From the IMG/VR virus record IMGVR_UViG_3300036784_000146, positions 64,001 through 128,000 of that record: 64,000 bases of DNA; one strand, 5' to 3'. The notes under the pieces are model-generated. The model was given only the letters and a program-made list of their open reading frames with translations. It did no database searches and was not told the DNA's origin. Shown here piece by piece: positions 1 to 32,500 of this stretch; position 1 is the stretch's first letter, and each line of letters begins with the position of its first letter. The position numbers and the translations under genes are program-made. The DNA is from a virus (taxonomy: Duplodnaviria; Caudoviricetes).

Positions 1-542
1 GGATGCTCGGGGACCTCTTCGATTCCACCACCGGCGGCCCGCACCTGATGGACGAGTTCCAGACGCACTTCAATTCGGAGCGCATCGCCGAGCTGGCCCA
101 GATCGCCACCACCCGGTTCAACTACATCGGCTTCCCGGTGACCGACTACGCCTTCGGGGGTACCAGCTCGGGCCAGGGTGGCTTCACCGGCCTGTTGGTG
201 ATCGGCACTTACCTGGAAGTGCTGCGCCACCTTATCCGCAGCTACGTCGAGATCCCGGTGTGGCAGAACATGAACGTCACCTACGAGGACCGCCGCGAGT
301 ACATGGCCCGCTGGAAGCAGGTCTTCGACGACGAGTGGGCCGACTACCAGACGATGGTCAAGATGGCCAAGCGCTCGCTGCTGCAGCTGGGTCGGGGCTC
401 GCTGCTGCTCGGCGGTGGCTACTTCGGCATGAACGGCAGCCGGGGCCTGTTCCTGTTCAGCCCCTACTCGGCTCTCGCTCGGAGCTTCCGCTTCTATCCC
501 GCCGCCCCGGCGATCAGCTTCCCGTCGACGAGGATCCCGTGA
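1..542 (+). CDS. Head-to-tail adaptor-like virion protein (5'-truncated by window edge)
   Basis: Open frame from the window edge with GC3-rich codons; position upstream of the neck/sheath genes; TGATG overlap with the next gene. Confidence 0.55.
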   Translation, partial: MLGDLFDSTTGGPHLMDEFQTHFNSERIAELAQIATTRFNYIGFPVTDYAFGGTSSGQGGFTGLLVIGTYLEVLRHLIRSYVEIPVWQNMNVTYEDRREYMARWKQVFDDEWADYQTMVKMAKRSLLQLGRGSLLLGGGYFGMNGSRGLFLFSPYSALARSFRFYPAAPAISFPSTRIP

Positions 543-1261
543 TGCGCATCCACAGGCAGGCCGAGACTTTTGCCTACCGGCTGGCGACACCCGCCATGCC
601 GGGAGCTTCGCTAAACGTCACCGACAGCGCTCCCCAGAGAAACAGACCCGTCAAGCTGGTGTACGGCGGCGCATTCAACCCGCCGCACGAGGGGCACGTA
701 GGCGCGCTGCGAGACGCGCACAATGCGCTCGCCGGTGCTGGGTACCAAGTAGACGGCACCGTCGTTACGCCTACCGCAGACAAGCTGTTGGCGAAGAAGC
801 AGATGGATCCGCAGTATCAACTGGGCCTGCAGGCTCGCGCCAACGTGAGCCGGGCCGCATTCCCACCCGAGATAAACGGTTCTCCCGTGGAGGTTCACAC
901 CGGGCCGTCCGAGGAGGTCGAGCACTCCGCAGGGAAGCCACGGCGCACCGATCTCGCGAACTGGGTGCAGCGGCAATACCCGAATCACACCATCGTCAAC
1001 GTCACCGGAGAAGACGCCACCGTGCCCGGTGCCCCTGAGGGCGGTCCGCATCCGTCGCTGTACTCCGGCGAGGTCGGCTCCAATCATGCGGGCTACAACT
1101 ATCTCACGCTGCCGCGCGATCCCGTAGAGAGCATGAGTTCAAGCAAGATTCGCGCTGCCGAAGCTGCAGGCCAGCCGCTCCCTGGAATGACGCCAGGGTC
1201 GGAGCGTGCCTATCGCGAAGAGCTGGCAAAGCATCGAGCGAACTTCGCCGGGATTCCGTAA
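542..1261 (+). CDS. HxGH-superfamily nucleotidyltransferase (NadD/NMNAT-like)
   Basis: Start at ATG 542 (overlaps upstream stop) rather than 260; GGAFNPPHEGH, VTGED and MSSSKIR match NadD/CoaD-type motifs. Confidence 0.75.
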   Translation: MRIHRQAETFAYRLATPAMPGASLNVTDSAPQRNRPVKLVYGGAFNPPHEGHVGALRDAHNALAGAGYQVDGTVVTPTADKLLAKKQMDPQYQLGLQARANVSRAAFPPEINGSPVEVHTGPSEEVEHSAGKPRRTDLANWVQRQYPNHTIVNVTGEDATVPGAPEGGPHPSLYSGEVGSNHAGYNYLTLPRDPVESMSSSKIRAAEAAGQPLPGMTPGSERAYREELAKHRANFAGIP

Positions 1262-2226
1262 TGCAGGTCCTTCGGCAGCGCGAGCAGTTCGCCTACCGGC
1301 TGGCGGCGTCGACCAAGCTCTATCGAGGGCTCAATATCGACACGCGCCAGCCTGGGCTTGAGAAGGTGCATTCCATTCTGAATCCACCAGGCACACAGCC
1401 CCTAGAACACCACCCGGGTTGGGATCACCCCGAGGTGGGCACGCACTTACTGAACTGGCTGTCCGACAACAGGAGCGGTCTGGGCAGGCATTGGAGTGAA
1501 GACCCCGCTCAAGCCGAGACGTTCGCCAGGTGGCCCGACGAGACCACCGGACGAGGTGGCAATCTGCAGGCCGTCGTCGAGGGCGACTGGGGTGGGCAGG
1601 GAGCCGATCCCAACCGCACCAACACTCGCGAGTTCAACGACGCCGGAGAGCAGATCCGATCCTTCCCCTGGGAGAAGGAGCACACGCTGTCGCCGGGTGC
1701 CCACCTCAACGTCACCGGCCTGAAGATCCGGCCCTACGACGACGAGTACTGGAATGGCCCTAGCACGGGTGATGAGCCCATCGACGAGAACCACGAGGGG
1801 CCTTGGCATTCGGTGCTCGGTGCCTCGTCGTCGCGAACGGCCGCTGCTGCCGAGCCGTTCATGGTGCCGACCGAGCATTTGGCCCCTCATATCGTCTTCG
1901 ACCGGTCCACCATGATGGAGCAGAGCAAGCCCAACTTCCAGGAGCTGCTGGCGCACATCAAGAAGCACGGGATCCAAGATCCCGTCACCATGGAGACCGA
2001 CGGGCAAACGGGCACCTTGGCCGACGGCAACCACCGGTGGGCGGCCGCCAAGATCCTTGGCCTCCCTCACGTCCCCACTCGGTTCGTTCGAGAGAACACC
2101 AAGTTCTTGCAGCACATCGGTGCTCCGGAACTGCATCCGATGATCCGTCAGCACCTGGCGGCGCACCCGGAGGCCATTCAGGAGGACGTCGAGCGCCAGC
2201 CATCCTGGCAGCAGGGGGAACGATGA
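1261..2226 (+). CDS. ADP-ribosyltransferase-like domain fused to ParB/sulfiredoxin-like domain
   Basis: LYRG...HWSEDP..AETFA...WEKEHTL fits the R-S-ExE ART pattern; C-terminal GIQDPV..DGNHRWAAAKILGLPHVP is a ParB-N signature. Confidence 0.65.
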   Translation: MQVLRQREQFAYRLAASTKLYRGLNIDTRQPGLEKVHSILNPPGTQPLEHHPGWDHPEVGTHLLNWLSDNRSGLGRHWSEDPAQAETFARWPDETTGRGGNLQAVVEGDWGGQGADPNRTNTREFNDAGEQIRSFPWEKEHTLSPGAHLNVTGLKIRPYDDEYWNGPSTGDEPIDENHEGPWHSVLGASSSRTAAAAEPFMVPTEHLAPHIVFDRSTMMEQSKPNFQELLAHIKKHGIQDPVTMETDGQTGTLADGNHRWAAAKILGLPHVPTRFVRENTKFLQHIGAPELHPMIRQHLAAHPEAIQEDVERQPSWQQGER

Positions 2227-2831
2227 CGATCCGAGTCCCCATGCAGTACTCGGTCTACCGGGCCCGTCGGTGGGTCAGGGGATCTCTGCAGGCTCACGGC
2301 GAGCAGTGCATCCTGCTGCCCATCTACCATCCCAGCCGGGATAAGGACGGCACGCGCTGTCCGCGCTGCACCGATGACATCTACACCGGCGGCAAGGCCA
2401 GTTGCTCGATCTGCTACGGCACGGCCTTCGTCGGCGGTCCCCGCACGGCCGCCCGCGTCTGGGCGCTCTTCAGCGATACCAAGCGCCCCGAGCAGTACGG
2501 CCAGCGCGGTGTCTGGGCGGCCGACGCGCGCGAGATCCAGACCGAGGCCTTCCCCGAGCTGCGCGAGCACGATTACGTGGCGCGGATAAAGAGCTGGGAC
2601 GTCACCGGCGCCATCCCGCAGGAGGTGTACGCCATTTACGGCGTCGGCGAGGTCAACCAGGACTCGCTGCGCACCGGCGGCCGGTTCGGCCAGTACCACC
2701 TCGACGTTGTCGGCCAGCGCGCACCGGTCACTAAGCTGGCGCCCAACATCAAGATCTACGACTACCCGCTCGTCGGCCAGACTTTCCCGGGCGTGAGCTG
2801 GGACAACCAGGGGAGGGTGATCGAGGGATGA
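2223..2831 (+). CDS. Head-closure/neck protein with Zn-finger
   Basis: ATGA overlap at 2223; CPRC..CSICYGTAFVGG motif; position between adaptor and sheath. Confidence 0.55.
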   Translation: MTIRVPMQYSVYRARRWVRGSLQAHGEQCILLPIYHPSRDKDGTRCPRCTDDIYTGGKASCSICYGTAFVGGPRTAARVWALFSDTKRPEQYGQRGVWAADAREIQTEAFPELREHDYVARIKSWDVTGAIPQEVYAIYGVGEVNQDSLRTGGRFGQYHLDVVGQRAPVTKLAPNIKIYDYPLVGQTFPGVSWDNQGRVIEG

Positions 2832-4182: not shown

Positions 4183-5748
4183 ATGACCAACCCGTCGTCG
4201 GCCATCGACTTCAGTCGGTACCTGCCGCCCGGTGTGTACGTCAATCCACAGCCTGGGCCGCAGCTGGCTGTCAACTCAAGCCTGCCGACGGCAGTTGGCC
4301 TGTTCGGGGTGGCGATCGGCTTTCGGACTTTCATCGAGTCGGTCATCATCAACCCCGACACCAACGGCACGACACCGGCGGTCAACCGCACGCTAGCCAA
4401 CCAGGGCATCAACACCGCCACCATCCAGGTGACCGACCCCAACACGGGCCAGATCTATGTGTTGGGCACTGATTACACCATCGTTAACGTGGGCGGCACT
4501 GTGGGCACCAGCAATGCGCTGACCACGATCAGCCGGGTGATCGCCGGTGGCCACATCAACGCGGGGTCAACGGTCCAGGTCGCCTATGAGTTCACCGACC
4601 CGACCTACTACGACGCCAAACTCTTCTACACCTACCGCGACATCGTCACCGCCTTCGGCGCCCCGTACAACCTGACCACCGGCGCCATCCAGTCCGAGTT
4701 GACTCTGGCCGCGCAGTTCGCTTTCCTCAACGGCGCCTACCAGATCGTGTGCGCGCCGGTGCACCCAACCACCCCGGGGAATCCCACCACTGGCGACTAC
4801 AACGACGCCTTGGCCAAGCTGGCGGACAACGGCCTGGTCGGCATTATCGTGCCTTGCACCGGCCAGCAGCCGCTGCAGCAGCTGGTCCAGGAGCACGTGG
4901 ACCAACAGTCGGCCAACCGCTTTGAGCGCCGGGCGATCATGGGCATGGACGGCACCGGCACGGCCGTTCCCTCTGGTCAGCGCATGACCAACGCGATGGA
5001 GTTGACCGACCAGCGGATCATGTTGCTCTCGCCAGCAACGTTCACCTACTTCTCGACCGAGCTGAACAACGATGTCACAGTTGGCGCCCAATTCATGGCG
5101 GCCTCACTGGCCGGGATGGCGATGCAGTTGAGCTGGGCGATGCCGCTCACGCGCAAGCTGCCTACCGGCTGGACGGACATCCCCGAGGTCGAGCCCGAAG
5201 CCCAGAAGAATCTGGAAACTGAGAACGGCCTATGCGTCATCGAGAAGACGCGCCGTCAACAGATCCAGGTCCGGCACGGGGTGACCACCGACAACATCGA
5301 CATGTTGCATCGGGAATGGTCGATCATAGGCCAACAGGATGCAATGGTTTATCGTTTGCGGGACTACCTCGAAAACGCAAACTTAATCGGTCAGCCTATT
5401 TACGACTACACGCTCGTGAATGTGAAGGCATCTGCTGAAGCTGCACTTCAGAGCCTTAGACGCGACGGACTAATGGTCGACTATTACGGCCTTGCGGCCC
5501 GACAATTGTTGACCAACCCGGACGTTATCGAGATTAGCTACAGCTGGCTGCCCGCGTTCCCATTGAATTACATTGTGGTCACGTTCAACATCAGCCTGAC
5601 CTCCGGCGACGTCACCCAGCAGGGCACGACCAGCAACATCGCCAACTCGACGAACACTTCGACGACTGGAAGTGCGACCATCACGGCCCCGGCCAGTTCG
5701 TCGACGACCGACTTCGGCGGTCCGTCCAACACGCTGCAGCACACCTAA
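4183..5748 (+). CDS. Contractile tail sheath protein
   Basis: N-terminal YLPPGVY; C-terminal sheath motifs (VRHGVTT..REWSII..FPLNYIVVTF); RBS AGGGAGG. Confidence 0.9.
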   Translation: MTNPSSAIDFSRYLPPGVYVNPQPGPQLAVNSSLPTAVGLFGVAIGFRTFIESVIINPDTNGTTPAVNRTLANQGINTATIQVTDPNTGQIYVLGTDYTIVNVGGTVGTSNALTTISRVIAGGHINAGSTVQVAYEFTDPTYYDAKLFYTYRDIVTAFGAPYNLTTGAIQSELTLAAQFAFLNGAYQIVCAPVHPTTPGNPTTGDYNDALAKLADNGLVGIIVPCTGQQPLQQLVQEHVDQQSANRFERRAIMGMDGTGTAVPSGQRMTNAMELTDQRIMLLSPATFTYFSTELNNDVTVGAQFMAASLAGMAMQLSWAMPLTRKLPTGWTDIPEVEPEAQKNLETENGLCVIEKTRRQQIQVRHGVTTDNIDMLHREWSIIGQQDAMVYRLRDYLENANLIGQPIYDYTLVNVKASAEAALQSLRRDGLMVDYYGLAARQLLTNPDVIEISYSWLPAFPLNYIVVTFNISLTSGDVTQQGTTSNIANSTNTSTTGSATITAPASSSTTDFGGPSNTLQHT

Positions 5749-5760
5749 TAAGGAGGAGAT

Positions 5761-6231
5761 GTGGCTCCATCGTTAACCCGTGTAGGTGGCTCTGGGTTTA
5801 CCACCATGATGTACCAGGGCCTTCGCATGGCGATGCTGCAGGTCATCAACGACACGCAGCCCACTCCGGTGGCGGCCGCCCAAGCCATCCAGCCCATCGA
5901 CGAGTCGGTGCCTATCGAGATCGTGACCGCCCAGGCCGTCGGCGTCGGCACGATGCGAGGAACTTTCTACGAGCTGTGGAACCAGCCGGTCTGGCAGGCG
6001 CTCCCCGGCTTGGCGGGCACCTGGACACTGCTCGACATCCTGCAACGGCAGACCAGCTTGGGCTCGGTCACGATGCAGAAGGTCATCAAGAGCCCGACCG
6101 GCATCATGCGCTCGCTGGTCTACCACGCCACCCAGATCACCGACGTGGATGCGGGCGAGAACATCACGATCGGGACGATGTCCCTGCCGAAGACCATTAC
6201 CTGGCAGTACTGCTACAGCTCGAACGTCTAA
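5761..6231 (+). CDS. Tail tube protein
   Basis: 156 aa directly after the sheath; RBS AAGGAGGAG; beta-rich tube-like sequence. Confidence 0.8.
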   Translation: MAPSLTRVGGSGFTTMMYQGLRMAMLQVINDTQPTPVAAAQAIQPIDESVPIEIVTAQAVGVGTMRGTFYELWNQPVWQALPGLAGTWTLLDILQRQTSLGSVTMQKVIKSPTGIMRSLVYHATQITDVDAGENITIGTMSLPKTITWQYCYSSNV

Positions 6232-6240
6232 GGAGGCACC

Positions 6241-6504
6241 ATGGGACTGGGCATCGTCCGGCAAGCAGATCAATACGGGTTGGATGACGGCGTGCACGCG
6301 CCGGGAGAGTACGAAGCTCCTCCCGAGATCGATCCAGCCGAATCTCGGCGTCCACAGCACCAGCAGCAGCCGTCGTCGCCTTCCCCGTCTCCTGCTCCGT
6401 CGGTGATGGCGCAGCGCATGGGTCCACGCATCCAGGCGGGCACGATGGAGCGTGTTTCACGTGAAACATCGGCACCGATCCTGCCACCTGGTCTGGGGGG
6501 CTGA
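6241..6504 (+). CDS. Small P/Q/S-rich hypothetical protein containing parS (VSRET)
   Basis: RBS AAGGAGG; TGATG overlap with the next gene. Confidence 0.6.
   Translation: MGLGIVRQADQYGLDDGVHAPGEYEAPPEIDPAESRRPQHQQQPSSPSPSPAPSVMAQRMGPRIQAGTMERVSRETSAPILPPGLGG
6453..6468. promoter_or_regulatory. parS centromere-like site, TGTTTCACGTGAAACA
   Basis: Perfect 16-bp palindrome matching the bacterial chromosomal parS consensus. Confidence 0.85.
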
Positions 6505-11572: not shown

Positions 11573-14500
11573 CGATCTTGCCGGGCGACTCCTCGGGCAA
11601 CGGTAGCGGAACCCCCGGTATCTTTTCGCCAGCTGGCGCGGGCGACTACGTCCCGCTGCCCAATGCCCCTGTGAGCCCGTACAACAGCATCTTCCAGCAG
11701 GCCAACCACGTTTCCTCTCCGACCCCGGCCAACAACACGCTGGTCTACTCGCCGGACGTGCGCATCATCATCGCGCACAACTCGGTGCAGTACGACATCA
11801 GCAACGACCTGGTTCGCGGCACGCTGATCCGCAAGGAAAACTCCGCCTCGACGCTGATCTGGCAGTGCCACAACAAGAACCTGCGCTACACCAACAGCCT
11901 GATCAACAACGCGCCGATCTTCTCGCGTATGGACCGGATAGTTTGCTACATGAAGCGCGCCGGGACTTGGGTCCAGGTGTTCTCCGGCTACCTCGACAGC
12001 GTCCCGTACCTGCAGCTCTACCCCAGTATCGTGCAGTTCAAGGCGACCTGCACCCTCAAGCGGCTGTTGTGCTACTGGTGGAATCCCGGGCTGCCGGAAT
12101 CTATCGCCATCTTCAACCAGTTCATGCAGGCCAGCACGGCCACCCAGGGTGACGGACAGGCTCAGCAGGGCACCTCAGGCAAGTATCAGGACACTGGCCT
12201 GGGCAACCTGTTGGCGGCGCTGCTCACCCAGGTGGGTCACTGGGCCCCTCCCACGGTGCACATCCAGAACTTCCCCAGCGGCTTCATGGACCTGCTGCAG
12301 CTTCAGATGCAGAACCAGCAGAAGAACCAGCGGTCCGCGCAGTGGTTCCAGCAGCTCATCGAGGGCAACGTCAGCGGTCCGGCGCCGGGCGCGGCCGCCT
12401 CGTACAACACTGGCGCCGGAGCCCCGGGCCCACAGTCGTCCGTTCCTGTTCCTGGTGGGGTAGGAGCGCCTAGTGCGGGTGGATCCGGTCAGGCCTTCTA
12501 CGTCCAAGAGATCGTGGCTGCCTGTGACGCTCTGGGCATGGGTCCCACCACCCAGAACCTCAACGTCGCGACCGGCTTGTCGCAGGCGGCGACCGTCGGT
12601 GAGGGGTCTCGTGATCAGGCCACTCAAACAGCCTTCCAGCAGACCCAGACGGTGGCCAAGAACTACCAGACCTCCTTGCTGAGTAGCGATGCAGCCATTC
12701 TGGGGGTCGCCACGGCGATCGTGGAGTCTAGCCTGCATAACTGGGCCAACCCAGGGGTTCCGGAGTCTCAGAACATCGCCAGCGACGGAAATCCTCCCAC
12801 CGGCGGCGACGGTCAATCCTGTGGCCTGTTCCAGCAGCAGGCGCAATACGGCTGGGGCACGGTAGCCCAGGAGATGAATCCGCGTCAGGCGGCCACTATG
12901 TTCTTCCAGCATCTGGCCACCTACGACTGGCGCAACCTCGACCCCGGCGTGGCGTGCTGGGATGTACAACGCGCGGCTAATCAAAGCAAGTATCAAGGGC
13001 TGATCGACGCGGCCATCCCGCAGGCCACTCAGCTGGTGCAGCAATACCGCAACGCCACGTCGTCTCCCGGCAGCAGCACCGTGTCCACAGCCACCGGCAG
13101 CCTTCCCACTCAGCAGGCCACGTCGCTGGCCAATACTCTGGGCAACTCTGGCACCGGTGCCATCAACTCGGCGACGGCCAGCCCGGGCCTCAACCCCAGC
13201 GTCATCCTCACCAGCGGCGGCTCTGCAGGCACCGGTGTCGGCGGCGGTCTTGGTGCTCCCACCGTCGGTGGAGCTACCGGCACCCGACCGAATCCCGACT
13301 CCGAGGGTGCCATTGCGTTCGCGGCCGCCCAGATCGGCAAGCCCTACATCTGGGGTGGCACGGGGCCCAACGGGTACGACTGCTCGGGCTTGTTGCAGGC
13401 GGCCTTTGCTTCGATCGGCGTGGCTATCGGCCGTGACACCTTCTCGCAAGCGACTCATGGTCAGCGCATCGCGCCGTCCAACATCCAGCGCGGGGATGCC
13501 ATGCAGTGTGATGGTGGCGGCCACACCATGCTGTGGCTCGGCGATGGCACCATCATCGAGGCCTCCACCGAGGGGGTGCCGATCCACCGGCGCCCCGCCT
13601 ACGTGTCGCCGTCCGGGGCCAGCGGGATCTTCCGGTACTGCCAGAATGGCGGCGCTATCCCGGGAGTCGGCGGGGCCATCACCGGCGCCCCCTACAACAA
13701 CCCGCAGATATCGGGCCCGGGTAATCCGCCATCGATCATTCTGGCTTCGCAAGGTTCGGTGGCCGGTGCGTCTGCCGGGGCGCTCCAAGAGCCGATCGCG
13801 CAGAACTTGTTCGCCTATATTTTCCAGCCGCAGACCTTCATCTCCGATACGGCGTTCATGTACTCGGCGGCCACCCCCGAGAAGGACTTCATCAACGCCC
13901 AGCCGCTGTTCCAGGCCGTTGCCTCGGTTGCTGCAGCCAGTCTCCGCAACTTCGCTAGCGCACCCAACGGGGACTTTATCGCCTACTATCCGGACTTTTT
14001 CGGCATGGATGGCAAACCGGCTGTCTTTTTGCTGGAAGACGTCGAGCTGAAGGATTTGACACTCAACTTCTCCGACGACTCGCTGGCCACTCACGTCTAC
14101 GTCAACGGCGACCTGTCCATGGTCGGCGAGATGGACGCCACCATGGGCTGGCTGCTGACGATGGGCTACGCCACCGTCGAGAACACCGCGCTCTTCCAGC
14201 GGATGCGGCTGGTGAGCCCCGGCGACCTGGAAAACATGACCGGCCAGGCGCTCATGGCGCGCTTCGGTGTGCGTCCCGTCCAGGTCACCCAGGCCATGGC
14301 CGGGACCGCCGAGTTGGAGTTCCTGCTGGCCGTGCGTCTCTTCATGGAGAAGTGGGCGGCCCAGTACCAGTCCTCGGTCGGCATGACCTTCATGCCGGAC
14401 CTCTTCCCGGGCATGAGGGTGCTCTTCGTCAACCACAGCCTGCAGGTCTATGTCCAGGAGGTCACCCACCACTTCGACTTCGAGCAGGGCTTCCAAACCG

Positions 14501-14616
14501 AGTGCGTGGTGACCGCGCCGTCCAACCCGAACGTGCGCAACCTGTGGGCAGGCGCCAACGTCAACATCCCGACCACGACCGGCCAGGTCCCGACGACCAC
14601 CACGATCAGCACATGA
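11569..14616 (+). CDS. Baseplate hub protein with inserted lysozyme-like and NlpC/P60 domains
   Basis: Hub-like termini (..MPDLFPGMRV..YVQEVTHHFD); AIVESS..GLFQQQ..WGT lysozyme-like; GKPYIWGG..YDCSGL..GHTM NlpC/P60. Confidence 0.8.
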   Translation: MTILPGDSSGNGSGTPGIFSPAGAGDYVPLPNAPVSPYNSIFQQANHVSSPTPANNTLVYSPDVRIIIAHNSVQYDISNDLVRGTLIRKENSASTLIWQCHNKNLRYTNSLINNAPIFSRMDRIVCYMKRAGTWVQVFSGYLDSVPYLQLYPSIVQFKATCTLKRLLCYWWNPGLPESIAIFNQFMQASTATQGDGQAQQGTSGKYQDTGLGNLLAALLTQVGHWAPPTVHIQNFPSGFMDLLQLQMQNQQKNQRSAQWFQQLIEGNVSGPAPGAAASYNTGAGAPGPQSSVPVPGGVGAPSAGGSGQAFYVQEIVAACDALGMGPTTQNLNVATGLSQAATVGEGSRDQATQTAFQQTQTVAKNYQTSLLSSDAAILGVATAIVESSLHNWANPGVPESQNIASDGNPPTGGDGQSCGLFQQQAQYGWGTVAQEMNPRQAATMFFQHLATYDWRNLDPGVACWDVQRAANQSKYQGLIDAAIPQATQLVQQYRNATSSPGSSTVSTATGSLPTQQATSLANTLGNSGTGAINSATASPGLNPSVILTSGGSAGTGVGGGLGAPTVGGATGTRPNPDSEGAIAFAAAQIGKPYIWGGTGPNGYDCSGLLQAAFASIGVAIGRDTFSQATHGQRIAPSNIQRGDAMQCDGGGHTMLWLGDGTIIEASTEGVPIHRRPAYVSPSGASGIFRYCQNGGAIPGVGGAITGAPYNNPQISGPGNPPSIILASQGSVAGASAGALQEPIAQNLFAYIFQPQTFISDTAFMYSAATPEKDFINAQPLFQAVASVAAASLRNFASAPNGDFIAYYPDFFGMDGKPAVFLLEDVELKDLTLNFSDDSLATHVYVNGDLSMVGEMDATMGWLLTMGYATVENTALFQRMRLVSPGDLENMTGQALMARFGVRPVQVTQAMAGTAELEFLLAVRLFMEKWAAQYQSSVGMTFMPDLFPGMRVLFVNHSLQVYVQEVTHHFDFEQGFQTECVVTAPSNPNVRNLWAGANVNIPTTTGQVPTTTTIST

Positions 14617-17600
14617 CCAACCCAGGATTCGCTACGGCCCTCGCCCCCGCTTGGCAGAGACAAGCGGTGGCAATCCTGTCCGTCGACGCGGCAAGCAACA
14701 CCGCCCTGGGCTTAACTCGGCGCGAGACCCAGGTCCAGATCGACCTGAGTTACCACGTCGGCTCGGTGCAGGTCACCCCGTCGGTCGGTGAGCAGTGGTA
14801 CATCACGAAGCAGACCCCACCGACGCCCAGGATGGGTATCACTTGGGTGCTCGACGCCAAGATCCCGTTCAACACCCCCGAGATCACCCTCCCGGCCACC
14901 GAGGGCCAGCAGCAGATCGGCACCGGCAAGGGGCCCATCCAGCTGCACGGGACCCAGGTCAACGCCAACGGCCCGCTGAGGCTGGCCAACGCCAACAGCT
15001 CGCTGGCCGACTCGATTGCACGCGCCCGTGACGGACATAAGCGCGCCGCCTCGCTGCCGGGTGCTAGCACCGTCGACGCGGGATCGCTGGTCTACAACGG
15101 GGCGGCCCCGGCCTACTCCAACGGCAGCAACTGGATCCAGCTGGGTACCTACGACCTGCCATCGGGTGGTATCCCTAACAGCCAGCTGGCTGCCGACGTC
15201 CAGGCACTGCTTGCGTTGGCCGGTAGTGCCTTCCAGCTGCCCTCTGGCGGCATCTCCGCGACCGATCTGACCACTGAGGTCCAGAACTTCCTCAGTCTGG
15301 CTGGGACGGCCCTGCAGGATGTCGTCGGATCGGTGGGGCTGGGTAACTTACACACCTCTGGTACGCCCTCTGCCGGGCAATCTCTTCTCGTCGATTCCAG
15401 CGGCACCGGCCTGACCTTCGGCACTCCTTCCACTTCTGGCACCTCCTCCGGCTTGCTGAGCCTGCTGGAAGGAATGACCGGTATCAGCGGCGCCCTTCCT
15501 GCAGATCTGATCGGCTTGTGGACCAGCGTGCTCGGCGACATTACCGGGCTGGCGACCGGCACCTTGACCATTCCCGAGTTGGTCGCTGGCATCGTGCCTC
15601 GTCTGCAGAATCTGTCCCCCAACGGGCTGATCAACTCTCAGGCCCTGGACAACATCGCCGGGTCCATCCTGCGCAACCTTGACGGCACCGGGAAGTTCGA
15701 CGCCGCCCAATTGTTCAACATCAACAACATCCCCAGCATCCCCCAGGAAGCGATCTCTGGGCTGACGTACACCATCAGCCAGCTGCTTCAGGTGGTGGAC
15801 TTCCAGAACCTGCTGCAAGGTCTGTTTGGCACCACCAGCATCGGGTCGTTCTTGGGCGTTCCGGGGTTGCTGTCGGGATTCGGCACCTCGACGAGCATCC
15901 TGACTCAGCTGCTCGGGCTGTTCCCAGGGCTCGCGGGGGGCCTATCTGGCCTTCCTGGGCTAGGAGCGGTCTTCACCGACTTGACGGGCCTCCTTGGGAC
16001 TCCTACGGGTCTGGGTTCTGGATCCCCGACGTTGCCGGGTGTCGGCAGCATTCCCGTCCTGGGTGGTCTCCTGGGCTCCGGCAATCTGTTGGGCGGTGGC
16101 CTTTCCACCGCCAGTCCTATCACCACTCAGCTCCTGGGCTTGTTCCCTGGTCTAGCCACGGGACTCTCCGGCCTCACCGGGTTGGGGTCGGTCTTCACCG
16201 ACCTGACTGGTCTCCTCGGGACCCCAACCCACCTTGGCTCCGGATCGCCTTCGCTGCCAGGGATCGGAAGCATTCCGTTGCTCGGTGGACTGCTGTCGGG
16301 CGGGACGACACTCCTCACCTCGCTGATTCCGGGCCTCGACGCCAGCAAGATAGTCTCCGGAATTTTTGGCACCGGCCTGATTCCCGGCCTCGACGCCAGC
16401 AAGATAGTCTCCGGAATTTTCGGGTCGGGATTCATCCCCGGCTTAGACGCCAGCAAGATCATCTCCGGTGCTTTCCCGTTATCGATGACGCCGCTGGCTT
16501 TGGCCACGAGTCTCTGGAAGACGGGTAAGCAGGGTAATACAAACCTAGTCATCGATCCGCAGTTTGAAGATTCAACAATCACTCACGGCAGTGCTCTCGG
16601 CACGGGCGCATCTTTAGCGTATTCCACGGTGACCGCTCGCAGTGGAACACAGTGCCTCGCGCTGACTACCCAAACCTCGACCACCGGGCAGAACGATTTC
16701 TTCATGTTGGCCCCGGTGCCCACGACGGGTATATGGGAAGCGGCTAGTGGGCTGAAGACCCAACCGGGACAGACGTTTTACTGCGAGTTTTACGTTAAGG
16801 CCAAAGCAACTAATACCGCAACAGTGGGAACGGTGGCGTTCGGCATTAGCTTTGTTGACTCAACCGGCGTCACCGCACAAACCTATGTAGGTTTGGGCAC
16901 CGTTAACATGTCGGGCCTGAGCAGTTCCGCGTGGACGAAAGTGTCTGGCTGGTACACAGTCCCAGCGGGGTATGACACGGCGTTCCCATTCGCATGGACC
17001 AATGCCTGCAACGCCGCCAATCAGGTGTTCTACTTTGACGACGCCCTGGTGCGCGAGGAAACCCGTTCGCAGAGCATCATCTCCAACCTCTGGGGCTCTG
17101 TCGGTAGTCCGCTAACCAACATCCTGGCCGCCGTTGTCCCCGGCCTTGACGCCAGCAAGATCATCAGCGGAATCGTTGGGGTCGCCCAAATACCGTTGCT
17201 CGACGCAGCCAAAATCGTCAGCGGCGTGTTCGGCCAATCGCTCATACCGAGCCTTACGTCTGGCTGGGGTGGCTCGATCCTATCGTCGTTTCTGTCGGGC
17301 ACTCTTGGCACGGGGCTAATCCCCGGCCTCGACGCGAGTAAAATTATTAGTGGGGTCCTGGGCGGCACACTGATCCCGTTGTTACCCGCCAGCCAAATCA
17401 CCAGCGGCACATTCCTAACCAGCCTGATCCCTGGCCTTGATGCCTCCAAGATCATTTCGGGGGCATTTCCCCAGTCGATGATCACGAGTCTGACTAGTGA
17501 TCTCGGTGCTCTGCTGCCTATCAACATCTTCAACCAGCGCACCAACGCTGGCTCAAACTTGGTGATATCACCTAACTTTGACGACTCGACCATCTATCGG

Positions 17601-20600
17601 TCGTGGGGTTCATTTCCTGGTACTGACCGCGCCGGGATCGCGGCGGGCGGTGCCGCCGATCAGTCCTACTCAACAGATGTGGCCCATAGCGGAACGCAGT
17701 CTTGGAAGATGCACATCCACGGCGTCACTGGCGGCGGTTTCACCGGCACCAACTCCGAGGGCTGGTTGTGGTTGCTGCCCAACGTGAATGACATTGAAAA
17801 CGAACCCAACCCACCCACTTCCGCGATCAAAGTCCAACCGGGACAGAAGTTCTATTTGGAGGTTTGGGTCTACGGCGCGGCCACCAACACCCAACCCAAC
17901 CACATGGCTTTAACTGCTCAAATCTGGGACTCCAAAGGCGTTAACCCCCCAAGCAGCATAGATGCTCAGATCATAGCCGGTTACGCCACCACGGGCGCAT
18001 GGACACAACTATCTGGATACGTCACTATCCCAACGGGTTACGACCTGTTCGCGCCGTACGCCGATGCGAACAACTACAACGGCTCGGCTGGCGATAGCAC
18101 CTTTTACTGGGATGACGCCACGATCCGCGAGGAAACCGCTGCCCAGAACATTATCAATTCACTGTTTGGCGGATCGTCCATTCTCGGGTCGGTCTTATCG
18201 AGCGTCATTCCCGGCCTCGATGTGTCCAAAATCATCAGCGGTGTCTTTGGTTCGGGATTCATACCGGGCCTCGACGCAAGCAAGATTATCAGCGGAATTT
18301 TCGGGACCGGGCTGATCCCGGGTCTCGACGTCAGCAAGATCATCTCCGGTGTTTTTGGCTCAGGATTCATCCCGGGCTTAGATGCCTCCAAGATCATCAG
18401 CGGGGCATTCCCATTGTCGATGACGCCGCTAGCTTTGGCTCAAAGCCTTTGGCAGACAGCGCGGATCGGCCAGAGTAGTCTGGTTATCAATGGAGATTTC
18501 AGTGATTCGACCATCAATCGCGGCCCTTTAACCGGCGCGGGTGGCTCGTTCGCTTATACTACGACAACCGCGCATAGCGGCACGCAGTGCATCCAGTTCA
18601 CAGGCGGTACAGCGTCGGGTGCGTCGGAAACATTCGACCTCGGCCCGTACCCAAGCACCGGGCCGTTCACCGCAGTTATCAAAGCCCAACCGGGACAATC
18701 GTTTTACGCCGAAGCCTATATCAAAGCTGGGGCGACCAACACGACGACAGCGGGATCAGTCGGCATAGCAGCGTTCCTGACAGACTCGACTGGCGTCAAT
18801 GCCAACACCATTATTTGGTTCGGCTCTGCCGTTGGAATGAATGTGATTCCCAATTCGTCGTGGACGAAGCTAGGTGGTGTCTATACAATCCCGGCTGGCT
18901 ATGACACGCTTCAACCGTTCGCGTGGATGGTGAGCGCCAATGTCGGCAGTCAGGTTTGGTACTGGGATGACGCTTTAATCCGCGAGGAATCGCGTGTTCA
19001 ACAGGTCATCTCGAATTTATGGGGTGGCGTCGGCAACCCGCTAACCAACATCCTGTCCTCCGTTGTCCCCGGTTTAGACGCAAGCAAAATCATCAGCGGT
19101 CTATTCAGTCAGGTCCAGATCCCCTCCTTGACGAGCGGCTGGGCCGGAACAGTCGACGTCAGCCGTATCCTCGGTCAGCTCGCCCAGACGGCGGTCTCTG
19201 GGGTTCTGGGTGGGGCGACCACGCTGGCCGACGATCTCACCGGCCTGGTGACCAACGCGGTCGGCCTTAGTGGCGGCAGTGGGTTCCCGTGGGCGTTCCC
19301 GATCAGCTTCGGCGGCGGAAATAACAACCTCGCCAGCGTCGGCACCGCAATCGCCGGGTCCACGCAGCTCGCTCAGCAGGTGCTCGACACCATCGTCAAG
19401 ATCAACACCGGGTCGACCGCCACTAACAACTCGTTGTCGCAGTTAGAGGCCGCCCTTCGACAGCAGCCCGGTAGCACCATCGTGTCGCAGCTCCCGCCTG
19501 CAGTGCTGCCCGACATCACGCTGCCGATGTCGACGGCCTTACAGGCAGTACACGCCTCCACCGGCCTCAACACGTCCGACATCAACGACATCGTCTCCTA
19601 CGCCGAACAAGAGAGCGCGGCGGCGCTGGGCACGTTCATCGGAAATACCGGCGGGATCGCCCAGGCCGCCCAGGGATTCGCGGGCGGAGCTGTCGACACC
19701 ATCAACAGTGTGTTGAGTGGCATCCCGGTGGTCGGTAGCGAACTCAGCGACCTGTTCAAGCAGTTCACCGGATTCCTCACCCCGCTGCACAACAACTGGA
19801 CCGGCTCTACGTTGCCCGCCGCCACCTCGACCGATGTGGCCGCCGCCGCGCTGAACTCGGCCACACAGGCCAACCAACAATCCCAGCTGATCTCGTCCAT
19901 CCAGACCCAGCTCCCCAAGTTCTACGGAGGCGGCAACAGCGGTATTTCGTATCAGACCGGGTTCGTCGGAGGTCTGCCAGCGGGGTTCGTGGCGTTCACG
20001 CCGGGCTCGGGCCCGGCCTACAACTGTGCGATCAACACCGCGCAGAAGGCCCAGACCGACACTCAAGCTGTCAGCGGGATTTGGAGCACCGCCGACGGCT
20101 GGGCCAAGGCGCTGATTCTGCGGTCCAACGCTGCCGCAACCTCATTCCATTACGCCGAGTGGTGGCCTGGTGGTGGCGTCATCGGGGTTTGCGTTGCTGG
20201 TGTGTACCACACCCTGCTGTCGTTCGCGGCACCGGCTTTCGTAGCCAACTACGCCTACACGTTTGAGGCTGTCGGCCGTCAACTAACGCTGACCGGCCCC
20301 GGCGGCCTGGACGCAACGGTCACCGACTCCGGCAACGTCGGCACCATCAACTCCAACTGCCGTTACGGCGGATTCGGCACAGATGGTTCCATCATTCAAA
20401 CGCAGGGCTGGGGCGCGGCCGGTGGCTACACCTTCACACCGCCCGGGGGCCTGGTCAACGGCGACCTCTACGACATCTACGGCTACGGAGCAGGTGGCGG
20501 TGGAGGTGGCGGCGTCGACGCCTGGGGCAATGGTGGCGGCGGCGGTGGGTACTCCGAGAACTACGGTATCGGCGGTTCCGGGTCAATCTCGGGGAGCACG

Positions 20601-21587
20601 ATTATCGGCGCGGCGAATGGCCTCTCGGTAGGCCAACAGATCGCCATCACCATCGGCGGCGGCGGTCCGCCCGGGTCCAGCGAATACTATGCGACCGGCG
20701 AGATCACGTACTACTACTACGGCGGCAACAGCGGCCTCAGCAAACCGGTCTACGCCAACTACGGGTCAAGCGGAGCAGCTGGCGGGGCTACCGGCGCGTC
20801 GTGGTCGGGCGCGCTCGGCAGCGGATCGGTGTATTGCCCTGGTGGTGCGGGCGGCGCGGCCTACGGCGGTGCACCGACCGGCGGCGGCTCCTACGGCGCG
20901 GCGCAAGGTGGCGAGGCATTGGTCAACGGCAGCGCGCCCGCCTACAACGGCTATAACGGCAATCAGTGGGGCGGCGGCGGCTCAGGCTGTTATTCGGGCA
21001 GCGGCCAAACTTACGAGCACGATTATTACGGCACACTCGGCAGTCACACCTACGACTACATTTACGGCGTCAACGGTGCGCAGAGTGCTGGGGCTGGCTA
21101 CGACGGTGTGATGTGGATCGACTCGGTCAGCCGCCAATTGCCGGGATCGATCGCCTCGTTCGCATTCTGGGATGCGGCTATTTCTGGCCCGCAGTATGTT
21201 GCGGTGCAGCCAGGCACGTACACGGAAACCACCACGTCAACTACCTGGGCTGATTTGGCGACAACGAGCGATCAACTTACCGTCAACGTCGGCCCAAGCG
21301 GTATGGTCGCTATTTTCATATCGTGCGAGTTCGCTTACAACACAGCGGTCAACGGACAATGCTTTATATCCATTGGCATTACCGGAGCTAATAACATTGG
21401 AACCGGATTTGCGTCGTCTGGTATGCAGACCAGCACTGGCGCGGGCGGGTTGACCGCTGACTCTCTGTTCGGTTTTTACTTGATGACCGGGGGAGCGCAA
21501 GGCGCAACAGTTTTCAAAATGAAATACTTGGTCAATACCGGCACAGGTAATTTCGGGCCGCGATACATGTTGGCTATACCGTTCTAG
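14613..21587 (+). CDS. Giant tail spike/fibre protein: spike-like N-terminus, 18-aa repeats, three CBM-like domains, Gly-rich C-terminus
   Basis: ATGA overlap at 14613; TPSVGEQWYI OB-like start; three NLVI..FED/D...WTKLxG..T[IV]PxGYD..YxDDA modules. Confidence 0.75.
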   Translation: MTNPGFATALAPAWQRQAVAILSVDAASNTALGLTRRETQVQIDLSYHVGSVQVTPSVGEQWYITKQTPPTPRMGITWVLDAKIPFNTPEITLPATEGQQQIGTGKGPIQLHGTQVNANGPLRLANANSSLADSIARARDGHKRAASLPGASTVDAGSLVYNGAAPAYSNGSNWIQLGTYDLPSGGIPNSQLAADVQALLALAGSAFQLPSGGISATDLTTEVQNFLSLAGTALQDVVGSVGLGNLHTSGTPSAGQSLLVDSSGTGLTFGTPSTSGTSSGLLSLLEGMTGISGALPADLIGLWTSVLGDITGLATGTLTIPELVAGIVPRLQNLSPNGLINSQALDNIAGSILRNLDGTGKFDAAQLFNINNIPSIPQEAISGLTYTISQLLQVVDFQNLLQGLFGTTSIGSFLGVPGLLSGFGTSTSILTQLLGLFPGLAGGLSGLPGLGAVFTDLTGLLGTPTGLGSGSPTLPGVGSIPVLGGLLGSGNLLGGGLSTASPITTQLLGLFPGLATGLSGLTGLGSVFTDLTGLLGTPTHLGSGSPSLPGIGSIPLLGGLLSGGTTLLTSLIPGLDASKIVSGIFGTGLIPGLDASKIVSGIFGSGFIPGLDASKIISGAFPLSMTPLALATSLWKTGKQGNTNLVIDPQFEDSTITHGSALGTGASLAYSTVTARSGTQCLALTTQTSTTGQNDFFMLAPVPTTGIWEAASGLKTQPGQTFYCEFYVKAKATNTATVGTVAFGISFVDSTGVTAQTYVGLGTVNMSGLSSSAWTKVSGWYTVPAGYDTAFPFAWTNACNAANQVFYFDDALVREETRSQSIISNLWGSVGSPLTNILAAVVPGLDASKIISGIVGVAQIPLLDAAKIVSGVFGQSLIPSLTSGWGGSILSSFLSGTLGTGLIPGLDASKIISGVLGGTLIPLLPASQITSGTFLTSLIPGLDASKIISGAFPQSMITSLTSDLGALLPINIFNQRTNAGSNLVISPNFDDSTIYRSWGSFPGTDRAGIAAGGAADQSYSTDVAHSGTQSWKMHIHGVTGGGFTGTNSEGWLWLLPNVNDIENEPNPPTSAIKVQPGQKFYLEVWVYGAATNTQPNHMALTAQIWDSKGVNPPSSIDAQIIAGYATTGAWTQLSGYVTIPTGYDLFAPYADANNYNGSAGDSTFYWDDATIREETAAQNIINSLFGGSSILGSVLSSVIPGLDVSKIISGVFGSGFIPGLDASKIISGIFGTGLIPGLDVSKIISGVFGSGFIPGLDASKIISGAFPLSMTPLALAQSLWQTARIGQSSLVINGDFSDSTINRGPLTGAGGSFAYTTTTAHSGTQCIQFTGGTASGASETFDLGPYPSTGPFTAVIKAQPGQSFYAEAYIKAGATNTTTAGSVGIAAFLTDSTGVNANTIIWFGSAVGMNVIPNSSWTKLGGVYTIPAGYDTLQPFAWMVSANVGSQVWYWDDALIREESRVQQVISNLWGGVGNPLTNILSSVVPGLDASKIISGLFSQVQIPSLTSGWAGTVDVSRILGQLAQTAVSGVLGGATTLADDLTGLVTNAVGLSGGSGFPWAFPISFGGGNNNLASVGTAIAGSTQLAQQVLDTIVKINTGSTATNNSLSQLEAALRQQPGSTIVSQLPPAVLPDITLPMSTALQAVHASTGLNTSDINDIVSYAEQESAAALGTFIGNTGGIAQAAQGFAGGAVDTINSVLSGIPVVGSELSDLFKQFTGFLTPLHNNWTGSTLPAATSTDVAAAALNSATQANQQSQLISSIQTQLPKFYGGGNSGISYQTGFVGGLPAGFVAFTPGSGPAYNCAINTAQKAQTDTQAVSGIWSTADGWAKALILRSNAAATSFHYAEWWPGGGVIGVCVAGVYHTLLSFAAPAFVANYAYTFEAVGRQLTLTGPGGLDATVTDSGNVGTINSNCRYGGFGTDGSIIQTQGWGAAGGYTFTPPGGLVNGDLYDIYGYGAGGGGGGGVDAWGNGGGGGGYSENYGIGGSGSISGSTIIGAANGLSVGQQIAITIGGGGPPGSSEYYATGEITYYYYGGNSGLSKPVYANYGSSGAAGGATGASWSGALGSGSVYCPGGAGGAAYGGAPTGGGSYGAAQGGEALVNGSAPAYNGYNGNQWGGGGSGCYSGSGQTYEHDYYGTLGSHTYDYIYGVNGAQSAGAGYDGVMWIDSVSRQLPGSIASFAFWDAAISGPQYVAVQPGTYTETTTSTTWADLATTSDQLTVNVGPSGMVAIFISCEFAYNTAVNGQCFISIGITGANNIGTGFASSGMQTSTGAGGLTADSLFGFYLMTGGAQGATVFKMKYLVNTGTGNFGPRYMLAIPF
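15897..16310 (+). repeat. Tandem duplication of about 74 aa (222-nt period) of a G/L-rich segment
   Basis: TQLLGLFPGLAxGLSGLxGLGxVFTDLTGLLGTPTxLGSGSPxLPGxGSIP occurs twice. Confidence 0.85.
16320..19110 (+). repeat. 18-aa [IV]PGLD[AV]SKI[IV]SG repeats in four blocks
   Basis: 11 close copies plus 2 variants in blocks of 3, 3+2, 4 and 1, separating the CBM-like modules. Confidence 0.9.
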
Positions 21588-29553: not shown

Positions 29554-32500
29554 TGGCTGCCTCACCCCTACAGGGGATGTTCCTCAACTTCCACTGGCCG
29601 CTACCGCTGGTGAACCTGGTCCAGGACCTGATCGGCAAGCAGCAGTCGGCGCCCAATACCCCGCAGATCACCACCAGCGCGGCGGGCAGCGCATCGTCGG
29701 CACCTCAGGTCTGGTTCTCTCAGCCCCGCTCGGCCACCGACCCGACCATCGAGGTGCTGACCGTCAATTTCAAACTCCCACTCTCGATCGGCGAGTTCTC
29801 CATCGAGATCCTGCGCGTCTCGTGCACCTTCCAAGTCTGGTACCAGGACCGCAACAACAACTGGATCCAGATGCGCGACGAGAGCTACCAGCCGATGCAG
29901 ATCACGCTGTCCTCGTCTCAGGAGGTGAGCTGGTACAAGTACCACGTCTATACCTATCAGATCGTCGCGAAGGCGGTGCAGTTCCGCATCTCGCGCAACC
30001 CCGACCTCATATTGGGCAACCAGCCGTTCAACATCGGTCTGCAGAACGGGCTGATCCGGCGCAACATCTATGCCCTGTCCGACGGCACTCAGGCCATGGA
30101 GCCCGAGCAGGACGCGTTGGGAAACGTCATCGCCAAGTACATCCAGGACTGGGGCGCCTCCGACGCGATCGACGACGAGCCCTTCACCTTCTGGCGCAGC
30201 GCTCCCCAGCCTGACCCGCAGGCCGTGGTGTCGCTCTACCTGGACCTGCGTAACCCCGACGGCACGCCGCAGCTGATTGACACGCTCTATATCGACCCGG
30301 TCTACATCAACCAGAACCTCAACCTCTACTACTCGGTCGACGACACCGTGGGGACCCGTAACCTGTCGCCGGTCAGCCTGCCTCCCGACATCGACGAGAA
30401 CACCCAGTGGACGGCCGGATCGGGTCTCTCCGACATCTCTGCGACCGGGGGCACCAGTCTCTATCAGATAGCGCTGGCGATCGGCCCACAGCTGTCTCAG
30501 CCCGTCTGGATGGGTATCCAATGGGCGCCCGACTTCGACGTGCTTACTGGTGCACCGCCGAACAACCCCATCCTGTTCGGGGTGTCTCCGGGGCTGAACG
30601 CCGTGCAGACCATCTCCATCGTGGGGGACGCCGTCGGCGGGTCCTTCGAGCTGAGTCTGGACGGCACCAACTACAGCGCCTCGATCGCTAACAACGCGAC
30701 CGGTGACGCCATGCAGACCGCGCTGGCAGCGCTCGCGGCGATCGGTACCGGTAATGTGTTGGTGGCCGGAGACCCAGGTGGCCCGTGGACGGTGAACTTC
30801 CAGAACCAGCTGGGTCAGCAGGCGGTGCCCGACCTGCAGGTGGTCAACTCCCTGACCGGCGCCCCGCAGCCCAAGGTCAACGTACAGACCACCACCGCCG
30901 GGTACTCGCCGCCCAACGCCGGGGGGAGTCAGTACTGGCCCCGGGTGTACTTCGATGCCGGTGCCTCTGAGATCGCGCTCGAACTGACCAACGGCCAGGA
31001 CACGCAGCTCTTTACGGTGCCGCTGTCCCCGCTGCCCACTCAGTACACCCCGATGCGCATCGTGGTCGGCTGGGTCTACGAGCCCACCCCGCAGGTCTTC
31101 CTGTCGGTCACGCGGCCCGACGGACAGCTCATGGCCGACTCCACCCAGAGCGCGCCCCATCTGCCCACCCAGATCACGCTGGACGGCGAGGTAGGCTACC
31201 AGGACTTCCGAGGCAACATGACTGCGCTCGTGGTCAAGCTCGGCAACTGGGCCAACGGGTACCGGGCGTTTCAGGCCAACCCGGCGATGTACGTCAACCC
31301 CGACCCGGTGCAACCTGACCCCAACACCGGTATCGTGCCGTCGACCACGCTCGACGATGCGGTGCTGGCGGTCGACTGGACGCTGCAGGACACACCGATC
31401 GGCGGCGGGCACGCCAGCTTCTACACCTCCAAGATCTGGACGCCGATCTTCGCCAACTATGTCACCCAGAAGGGCAAGTTCTACTTCCCCAAGCCGGTGA
31501 TGGTGAAGTACCTGCAGCTAGAGTTCTCCAACCTCACCCAGGAGAGCTACCCGGTCTACGACTCGGGCATCAAGGTGATGTACCAGGTCTTCCCGATCTC
31601 GGTGAGCCAGACCCAGACCAAGCCGACGCTGGGCAGCATCATCAACGGTCTGGTATCGATCGGCGGCCAGATCCTCACCGGTGGCATCGGCAGCGTCAAC
31701 TGGCTCAACCCCTCGACGATCACTGCTGCGGTCAACTCAGTGTTCGGTCAGACAGTGTCGCCGATCAGCGTGCAGGTGGGTCCGGGCTATACCACGAGCA
31801 CCGCACCGGCCATTCCCAACACGCTGGGCTCCTCGGCCTCAGACATCGTTCCTGAGATATCCAGCCCGTGGGTCTACCGGCGTCAGCTGCCCAACGTGGC
31901 CGTGCTGGCCGCCCAGCAGCTCGGTGGCTTCCTGAACAACGTCGGCGCCCAGGTGGTCAACCCGTTGATCAACGGCATCGCCTCGACGATCGCGGGGGCC
32001 TTCAGCCCGCTGATTAACTTCTCGCCGTCCTCGACGTCGCTGCCGCTGCAGGGCTCGGACTTCTGGGTGGTCCCGGGTCAGACCCTGGCGATAGCGGCCA
32101 CCGTCATGCAGGGGCTCACCCAGGTCACCAGCACGCTGCTGAACCCCACGCCGGACACCACCACCCGGCTGCGGTTCACCACGACCAGCGTGCACGAGTA
32201 CCAGATCAAGACGGCGATACGTGATGCCGCCATCGCCTACTTCGCCGGGATCCGCGAGGTGCAGGCGTTCCGCACCACCTACATCTCCACCCAGGATCCA
32301 CCGAACTTCCAGTTCAACCCGTACGACCCAAATCAGTTCATCTACAACAACATTCGGCAGCTGACCAGCGGGCCCATCTCCACGGCCGGGATCACCTACG
32401 AGATCCAGAATCCGTTGTTCGACACCACGCTGGACGAGTGGGACCAGGCCCAGGGCAGCTGGTCGGTCGACCCGGCGATGGGCCGCTACCACTACGGCTC

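Follow-up and report, generated by a model that had tools for sequence, protein, structure and literature searches.

Two consecutive open reading frames (ORFs) in the viral DNA analyzed here encode proteins that are otherwise unrelated and yet begin with the same kind of short leader peptide. The DNA, referred to as the window, comprises the 64,000 nucleotides at bases 64001–128000 of the 143,610-bp virus record IMGVR_UViG_3300036784_000146, which is ~96% complete, and the two reading frames, ORF A and ORF B, lie among virion genes at its beginning. The leader is a real, strictly N-terminal tag that occurs once per polypeptide, is modular across its cargo, and is found in virion operons. A first-pass annotation made from the sequence of the window had described it as a modular, portable N-terminal tag, a description that is well supported by the evidence presented here, and had gone on to suggest that it directs enzymes into the capsid for injection with the DNA.

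An N-terminal leader on unrelated proteins

ORF A (239 residues; nucleotides 542..1261, + strand) opens with MRIHRQAETFAYRLA-TP (542..592, +), and ORF B (321 residues; 1261..2226, +) opens with MQVLRQREQFAYRLA-AS (1261..1311, +), both leaders being recognized by a hidden Markov model (HMM) of the leader. Ten of the first 15 residues are identical, and the 15-nucleotide stretch GCCTACCGGCTGGCG is present in both DNA copies (572–586 and 1291–1305). Stop and start codons overlap at all three junctions of this region (TGATG at 540–544, TAATG at 1259–1263, and ATGA at 2223–2226). Both the sharing of the leader and the translational coupling of the two ORFs within a virion operon, as claimed in the first-pass annotation, are thus confirmed. 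The resemblance is not a matter of chance, for the hexapeptide FAYRLA has just two instances in all six translated frames of the window. Searching the six-frame translation of the whole genome with the leader HMM gave five matches at 31–35 bits, the next best match scoring 7.5. The three further copies lie outside the window, grouped at genome positions 14998–17679 between minor-tail and endolysin genes, and they head a 94-residue protein, a 202-residue paralogue of the ADP-ribosyltransferase (ART)-like domain of ORF B (genome 15848), and a 408-residue zeta-toxin-type kinase (Pfam, 4e-17).

The leader consensus extends over 15–17 residues, M-[RHEK]-I-[LQ]-[RK]-Q-x-[ED]-x-F-A-[YW]-R-[LI]-A-[MA]-P, and its helical hydrophobic moment is equaled in just 0.3% of shuffles; the leader is predicted to form an amphipathic helix. 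The five copies differ in their codons (CGC, AGA, AGG or CGG for Arg, TTT or TTC for Phe, TAC or TAT for Tyr, and GCC or GCG for Ala). Where the amino acid is the same, the codon is also the same in 47 of 75 cases, 40.7 being expected from the codon usage of the genome, and the regions upstream of the five copies are unrelated to one another, each having a Shine-Dalgarno-like stretch of its own. Selection acts on the leader peptide and not on a DNA repeat. Recent duplication or gene conversion, considered as a source of the likeness between leaders, was rejected on the codon comparison. No Pfam or PHROG model covers the leader, and no published description of it was found, although an earlier description elsewhere is possible.

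Another proposal had been to scan the genome and related phages with a profile of the leader, and this revealed the leader on variable enzyme cargo among head, neck, and tail genes; the leader is moreover conserved in homologues of ORF A and ORF B and occurs on other cargo. A leader profile run against 1.84 billion representative proteins picked up 19 clusters at E ≤ 0.001; 18 of them match best at residue 1, and the nineteenth has the leader at its start and a second copy after an internal Met. Pfam identifies GNAT and zeta-toxin domains in some of the 19 clusters and nothing in most. A back-translated leader pattern found no match in a scan of IMG/VR and 21 stretches in the JGI and ENA metagenomes; ~10 of these stretches are genuine ORFs with the leader, the others being short ORFs that match by chance. 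The leader-bearing metagenome contigs have a guanine-plus-cytosine (GC) content of 53–64% and contribute new cargo in the form of GNAT acetyltransferases and unknown proteins of 297–575 residues. Across clusters and contigs, the cargo includes GNAT acetyltransferases, zeta kinase, ART-like domains, and proteins of unknown type.

ORF A and ORF B occupy a slot between neck genes whose content varies among the contigs and genomes compared (relatives, labeled L0xx). In the window this slot holds the NadD-like ORF A and the ART-ParB ORF B, each with a leader. It is filled in L006 by one 818-residue protein consisting of leader, NadD-like domain, HExxH (zincin) domain, ART-like domain, and a further domain, and in L030 and L031 by one 866-residue protein consisting of leader, ART-like domain, NadD-like domain, and two GNAT domains. 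L012 has a homing endonuclease and a leader-ART gene at this place, L036 a 178-residue leader-bearing protein, L037 an NlpC/P60-like gene without leader and a 97-residue leader-bearing protein, and Phrappuccino gp67 and gp68, with the leader on both. The PHROG 2806 gene forms the downstream edge of the variable slot (L006, L012, L030, L031, L036, Phrappuccino, and Phabba). The fused proteins of L006 and L030/L031 have a single leader, at the N-terminus. The NadD-like part of the L030 fusion aligns to ORF A from residue 23 on, and the junctions within the fusions at which a leader formerly stood read as a truncated KHRAS-MAYRFGS in L006 and as a degenerate VIRAATFCLAMP in L030. Because the fusions have one N-terminal copy and decayed internal sites, the leader is retained only where it heads a polypeptide. 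Multi-domain effector proteins near virion genes include ORF B (two domains), the 818- and 866-residue proteins of L006 and L030, and proteins of ~900–1000 residues in L017 and 1325 residues in L035.

A sister form of the leader (type 1b, the form described above being type 1a) has the consensus M-x-R-I-V-T-A-R-E-Q-x-E-x-L-S-P-W, or TAREQ..L.PW in short. Proteins encoded behind the capsid gene have this form in Bixzunavirus, Myrnavirus, and Phrappuccino. Its bearers are the first three genes downstream of the capsid gene of L035, the DUF7178 gene that follows the capsid gene of L036, gp98 and gp99 of Bixzunavirus IkeLoa, Phabba gp212 and one more Phabba ORF, and, in weak form, Phrappuccino gp57. 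An unrelated leader, GNP[YN]HDxLG[RK]F, is shared by enzymes within each of the siphovirus-like contigs L009 (3490–5810) and L011 (7162–10771), in which NadD-like, zeta-toxin, and DUF7178 genes follow the portal and VG15 genes; ~30 N-terminal residues are almost identical between two of these proteins in L009. The enzyme genes of L009 precede scaffold-like and capsid genes, and the sequence of L011 ends earlier. One pool of enzymes therefore bears an N-terminal peptide that differs from one phage lineage to another, and in every case the genes are in the head-gene region.

Cargo enzymes and gene neighborhood

The two proteins had been said to diverge into different folds immediately after the leader, and this is borne out by a NadD/NMNAT assignment for ORF A and by ART-like and ParB_N-like assignments for ORF B. 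The ORF A assignment rests on fold and motifs. Its model has an overall predicted local distance difference test (pLDDT) score of 82, with residues 1–21 below 50, unstructured, and detached from the fold; for the rest of the model the top Foldseek matches are all NadD/NMNAT (E from 1.6e-6 upward, template modeling scores 0.5–0.67). The score against Pfam CTP_transf_like is 20.6 bits, the cut-off being 21, and a sequence search of ORF A against solved structures gave nothing usable. An HxGH motif is present as PPHEGH from nucleotide 680 (context GGAFNPPHEGH), and a C-terminal ISSTxxR-like motif as SSSKIR from nucleotide 1136. The HxGH and SSxxIR motifs are kept across 18 ORF A homologues, the full-length ones retaining the PPH-x-GH and S-S...R core. 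ORF A is thus modeled as a NadD/NMNAT-like protein with a Rossmann-like NMNAT fold, for which the putative activity is synthesis of nicotinamide adenine dinucleotide (NAD) or nicotinic acid adenine dinucleotide from the corresponding mononucleotide, NMN or NaMN. A complete NAD salvage pathway was sought, and no Nampt or NAPRTase gene was found in the genome. Among metagenomic homologues of ORF A the enzyme is common and the N-terminus differs by group: P0002 and P0003 have the leader as in ORF A, P0006 has the sister form, and eight homologues have a quite different leader, NPYHDxxGRF.

ORF B, assigned from PHROG, Pfam, PDB, and structure matches (phrog_3147 at 3.5e-18), consists of the leader, modeled with low confidence as a helix over residues 2–15, an ART-like domain (residues ~17–188, with LYRG at 20, HWS at 77, and EKE at 138), a linker, and a ParB_N-like domain (residues 222–281, with DGNHR at 255). 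The structural matches of the first domain are mainly to ART and ART-toxin folds, but they are weak (Z 3.0–5.3, pLDDT ~75), and a Pfam scan gave no match for this domain or for the paralogue at genome 15848. In the alignment of the N-terminal domain [YH]RG, HW[ST], and E-x-E are conserved, E140 being invariant, and the conserved residues are tentatively assigned to the R-S-E catalytic positions by way of the weak structural match. The C-terminal domain scores 22 bits against Pfam ParB_N, below the cut-off of 26.3, in a low-confidence part of the model; several PHROG ParB families match it at 1e-4 to 6e-8, and a ParB protein in the PDB matches at E 0.0024. From these sequence matches and models, ORF B is a candidate ART-like domain joined to a candidate ParB_N-like domain. 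The linker SSSRTAAAA (residues 189–197, nucleotides 1825–1851, +) had been noticed in the first-pass annotation as an SSRTAAAA element between the two domains, correctly so. All five homologues of the N-terminal domain (P0020–P0024) keep the leader, and four of the five stop at an SSSRTA-type linker and have no ParB domain; the equivalent linker of L030, SSSRMAAA, leads into a NadD-like domain. Because four of five homologues end there and L030 places another domain after it, SSSRTAAAA is a true module boundary.

The DNA has 66–69% identity, over the aligned parts, to the Mycobacterium phages Phrappuccino and Phabba/Myrna and to members of Bixzunavirus; a near-identity DNA search of a phage collection gave no match, and the relatives surfaced in distant mode only. 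The major capsid protein has 73–96% identity to >1000 database proteins, the Bixzunavirus capsid protein among them. Upstream of ORF A lies the C-terminal part of a conserved neck or head-completion protein of ~330 residues (3..542, +; phrog_2791 at 6.6e-70), which has orthologues in all relatives. Weak leads in the ESM Atlas connect it to the Mu gp36 and T4 gp13 neck proteins, and a sequence search against solved structures gave nothing usable. ORF B is followed by the PHROG 2806 gene, a conserved 202-residue zinc-ribbon virion gene (2223..2831, +; phrog_2806 at 1.1e-56), then by more neck genes, the tail sheath gene (4183–5748), and the tail tube gene (5761–6231). Between the tail tube and tail-chaperone genes an 87-residue ORF (6241..6504, +) begins with MGLGIVRQADQYGL and is a possible sixth, weaker bearer of the leader. 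This ORF contains a perfect 16-bp parS-type palindrome, TGTTTCACGTGAAACA, at window positions 6453–6468, with one copy in the whole genome and 0 expected by chance; its 14-bp core is found at the same place in L006 and L012. ORF B has its ParB_N-like domain without an obvious DNA-binding helix-turn-helix.

Further observations concern neighboring genes. The gene of the 94-residue leader-bearing protein is followed by a leaderless gene (genome 15279–15851) with weak NlpC/P60 and PHROG endolysin matches, so that together with L037:19081–19629 an NlpC/P60-like leaderless gene stands beside leader-bearing genes in two contexts. Its product may be a virion-borne wall hydrolase or may be functionally tied to the tag. 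In L012 (9062–10000) a 312-residue cysteine-rich homing endonuclease-like protein is inserted after the neck gene and ends in a copy of the last 13 residues of that gene (AAPAISFPSTRIP), as expected for a homing insertion that restores the end of its target. L017 (43–6717), a contig of 53% GC in which leader types 1a and 1b are both present, has three consecutive polyvalent-type ORFs of 1004, 297, and 901 residues with a recurrent (A/G)QRFW(A)M motif at domain boundaries. The tail region of the window includes very long ORFs of 2411 residues (14352–21587) and 1639 residues (28815–33734). The head module opens with a 2H phosphoesterase (LigT/Acb1-like; genome 48166–48807; Pfam 2_5_RNA_ligase2 at 2.3e-7), which also partly matches a PHROG family annotated as head maturation protease.

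Possible function of the leader

Actinobacteriophage myoviruses (relatives of Phrappuccino, Myrna, and Bxz1) place the tag on otherwise unrelated effector enzymes, including NadD/NMNAT-like, ART-like, and ParB-like proteins, zeta-toxin kinase, and GNAT acetyltransferases. In the mechanism proposed here, the enzymes would be translated separately, and the tag would dock each of them onto some component of the particle during assembly. They would thereby end up inside the virion and reach the host together with the DNA, by analogy with the capsid-targeting signals (CTS) of T4 and the N-terminus of P1 DarB; the tag might be removed by a maturation protease. Loading of enzymes into the virion fits the findings above and is the most probable role of the tag, with odds that are about even. 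Since the NadD-like and ART-like domains are joined in one protein in relatives, they may work jointly on NAD at entry. A fuller scenario would have mycobacteriophages of clusters C and AA and their relatives use lineage-specific tags (1a, RQxExFAYRLA; 1b, TAREQxxLxPW) to load arbitrary enzymes that are injected before gene expression, including NadD/NMNAT paired or fused with ART, a pair that could supply or restore NAD and so pre-empt NAD-depleting host immunity; taken in its entirety, this scenario is unlikely to hold.

A possible source of cleavage lies upstream of the window, where a 1120-residue protease-scaffold polyprotein (genome 52921–56280) contains three RRTA motifs (with K, D, and E as the next residue) and one RRRAED, only five RRTA being present in ~45,000 residues of predicted proteins. 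The RRTA and RRRAED motifs sit in acidic or basic low-complexity linkers of the polyprotein and may be maturation cleavage sites. The motif R-[LVT]-A-(M/A)-P recurs at the end of the leader and at internal junctions of the fused proteins. A sequence search of the protease region against solved structures gave nothing usable and no family identification, and no N-terminal processing data for Myrna or Bixzunavirus proteins were found in the literature. Removal of the leader by the maturation protease is considered doubtful. Cleavage at an R-x-A site, put forward in the first-pass annotation, is speculative, the support from these motifs being circumstantial. When a 40-residue N-terminal piece with the leader was co-folded with the major capsid protein and with the conserved C-terminal part of the polyprotein, the scores were 0.00, 0.49, and 0.06, which bear neither way.

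Several observations weigh against loading into the virion. The leader is without obvious likeness to the RRTA(D/E) motif of the polyprotein, and cleavage of the tag by that protease therefore does not follow. The second leader cluster adjoins minor-tail and lysis genes, not head genes, and the leader bearer of L021 adjoins ORFs that match none of the structural proteins of the window phage. No virion proteomics or N-terminal data were found in the literature for any tag bearer. Finally, orthologues of the small protein encoded after the tail tube gene start with I-x-RQ-[AS]-[ED]-x-[FY] in L006, L012, Phrappuccino (gp75), Phabba, and IkeLoa, and all relatives examined have a similar motif there, even phages in which type-1a tags are otherwise absent; its leader HMM E-values are 0.01–0.02, obtained in small search spaces. 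Because of this leader-like start the receptor could be a tail, assembly, or non-structural partner and not the capsid.

If the tag loaded the tail (tube lumen, tape-measure complex, or baseplate) and not the head, the start of the post-tube protein would be explained, as would the positions of the window cluster among neck genes and of the second cluster beside minor-tail genes. However, enzymes of 25–100 kDa or polyvalent proteins of 800–1300 residues would be unlikely to fit the tail lumen, the sister leader stands directly after the capsid gene, and the similarity of the post-tube protein is weak, so that loading of the tail is judged improbable. The tag might alternatively be a docking peptide for a common partner unrelated to packaging, such as an inhibitor or chaperone that silences toxic enzymes, a modifying enzyme, a host factor, or a secretion route. 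Several cargoes are toxin-type domains (ART and zeta kinase), the 94-residue protein has little beyond its leader and could be a decoy or regulator, and the NlpC/P60-like gene recurs beside tagged genes in two different contexts, all of which would fit such a partner. Yet no candidate partner gene was seen to accompany the tag at all loci, the tagged genes belong to virion operons in which stop and start codons overlap, and other phages have the same cargo set next to the portal with another leader; a partner of this kind is accordingly thought rather unlikely.

Two further explanations would leave the peptide without a function of its own. The common N-terminus could be a recombination seam or the inherited 5' end of gene cassettes, in keeping with a slot that is a hot spot for insertion and fusion, including the L012 homing endonuclease that duplicates the end of the upstream gene, and with the identical 15-nucleotide stretch of ORF A and ORF B, for which P is ~0.01 given the same amino acids. 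Against this, the peptide is conserved while synonymous change is free, the tag is kept across contigs of 53–65% GC and phages with capsid proteins 74–96% identical to that of the window phage, and it is N-terminal in all 19 clusters and decayed once internal. A 5' RNA or DNA signal for translation initiation or coupling, with the peptide incidental, would agree with the fact that all bearers are translationally coupled or closely spaced, but the upstream sequences differ and have their own Shine-Dalgarno-like stretches, codons for the same residues differ between copies, and the motif persists across very different GC contents. In view of the codon usage of the copies, their confinement to the N-terminus, and the erosion of internal ones, a seam is very improbable and a nucleic acid signal exceedingly so, and the 5' RNA element was rejected on the codon and upstream comparison.

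Should the tag load enzymes into the virion, actinobacteriophages would have their first defined signal of this type, and a consensus so clear over many cargoes and several genera would be unusual. The tag would show which unknown genes of widely used mycobacteriophages (Bxz1-like, Myrna, and Phrappuccino) encode delivered effectors, would point to new counter-defense enzymes (an injected NAD synthase with ART, zeta kinase, and acetyltransferases), and would offer an easy way to load selected proteins into phages of laboratory strains of mycobacteria. Even without packaging, a selected 15-residue peptide on ~20 unrelated protein clusters needs explanation.

Comparison with known systems

N-terminal capsid-targeting signals have been proven for T4 IPIII and for P1 DarB (PMC9024508). 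The leader resembles the T4 CTS, which is present on IPI–III and Alt, in being a short N-terminal peptide common to otherwise unrelated proteins of one phage, in having an ART-type enzyme among its cargo (as described for T4 Alt in PMC5512222), in being portable in principle (PMC9024508 on Mullaney and Black), and in the location of the genes among late virion genes, the bearers here lying in the neck slot, a post-capsid slot, and a tail-adjacent cluster. It differs in that packaging and removal by a protease are proven for T4, whereas they are putative for the present tag, and in its actinobacteriophage hosts, its greater length, its occurrence in several phage genera, and its sister variants. 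To our knowledge, the T4 CTS has no evident sequence likeness to the leader.

In P1, an N-terminal signal sends a large anti-defense enzyme, DarB, into a myovirus head, the first 30 residues being sufficient for capsid localization (PMC9024508). P1 also packages a ParB-domain protein, DdrB (PMC9024508 and PMC5512222). The N-termini of the Dar proteins have no consensus (PMC9024508), whereas here one consensus is found on many cargoes.

The polyvalent and MuF-fused effectors described by Iyer, Burroughs, Anand, de Souza, and Aravind (2017), whose domains (ART, ParB, metallopeptidase, and 2H) are predicted to be packaged and injected (PMC5512222), are similar in their ART, ParB, HExxH, and 2H domains and in their virion-gene context. 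In the passages of PMC5512222 consulted, a short common N-terminal leader, NadD/NMNAT, and zeta kinase were not seen. True multi-domain versions are present in the relatives L006, L030, L017, and L035, whereas in the window the domains are encoded by individual genes that each start with a leader.

Encapsulin cargo-loading peptides are likewise short, terminal, lineage-specific, and portable, and they direct a range of enzymes into an HK97-fold shell; they differ from the leader in being usually C-terminal and in involving neither DNA nor injection. An N-terminal capsid-targeting tag would thus be of a known kind, here in a new group of phages, with a clear consensus, and with an unusual NadD/NMNAT-like cargo.

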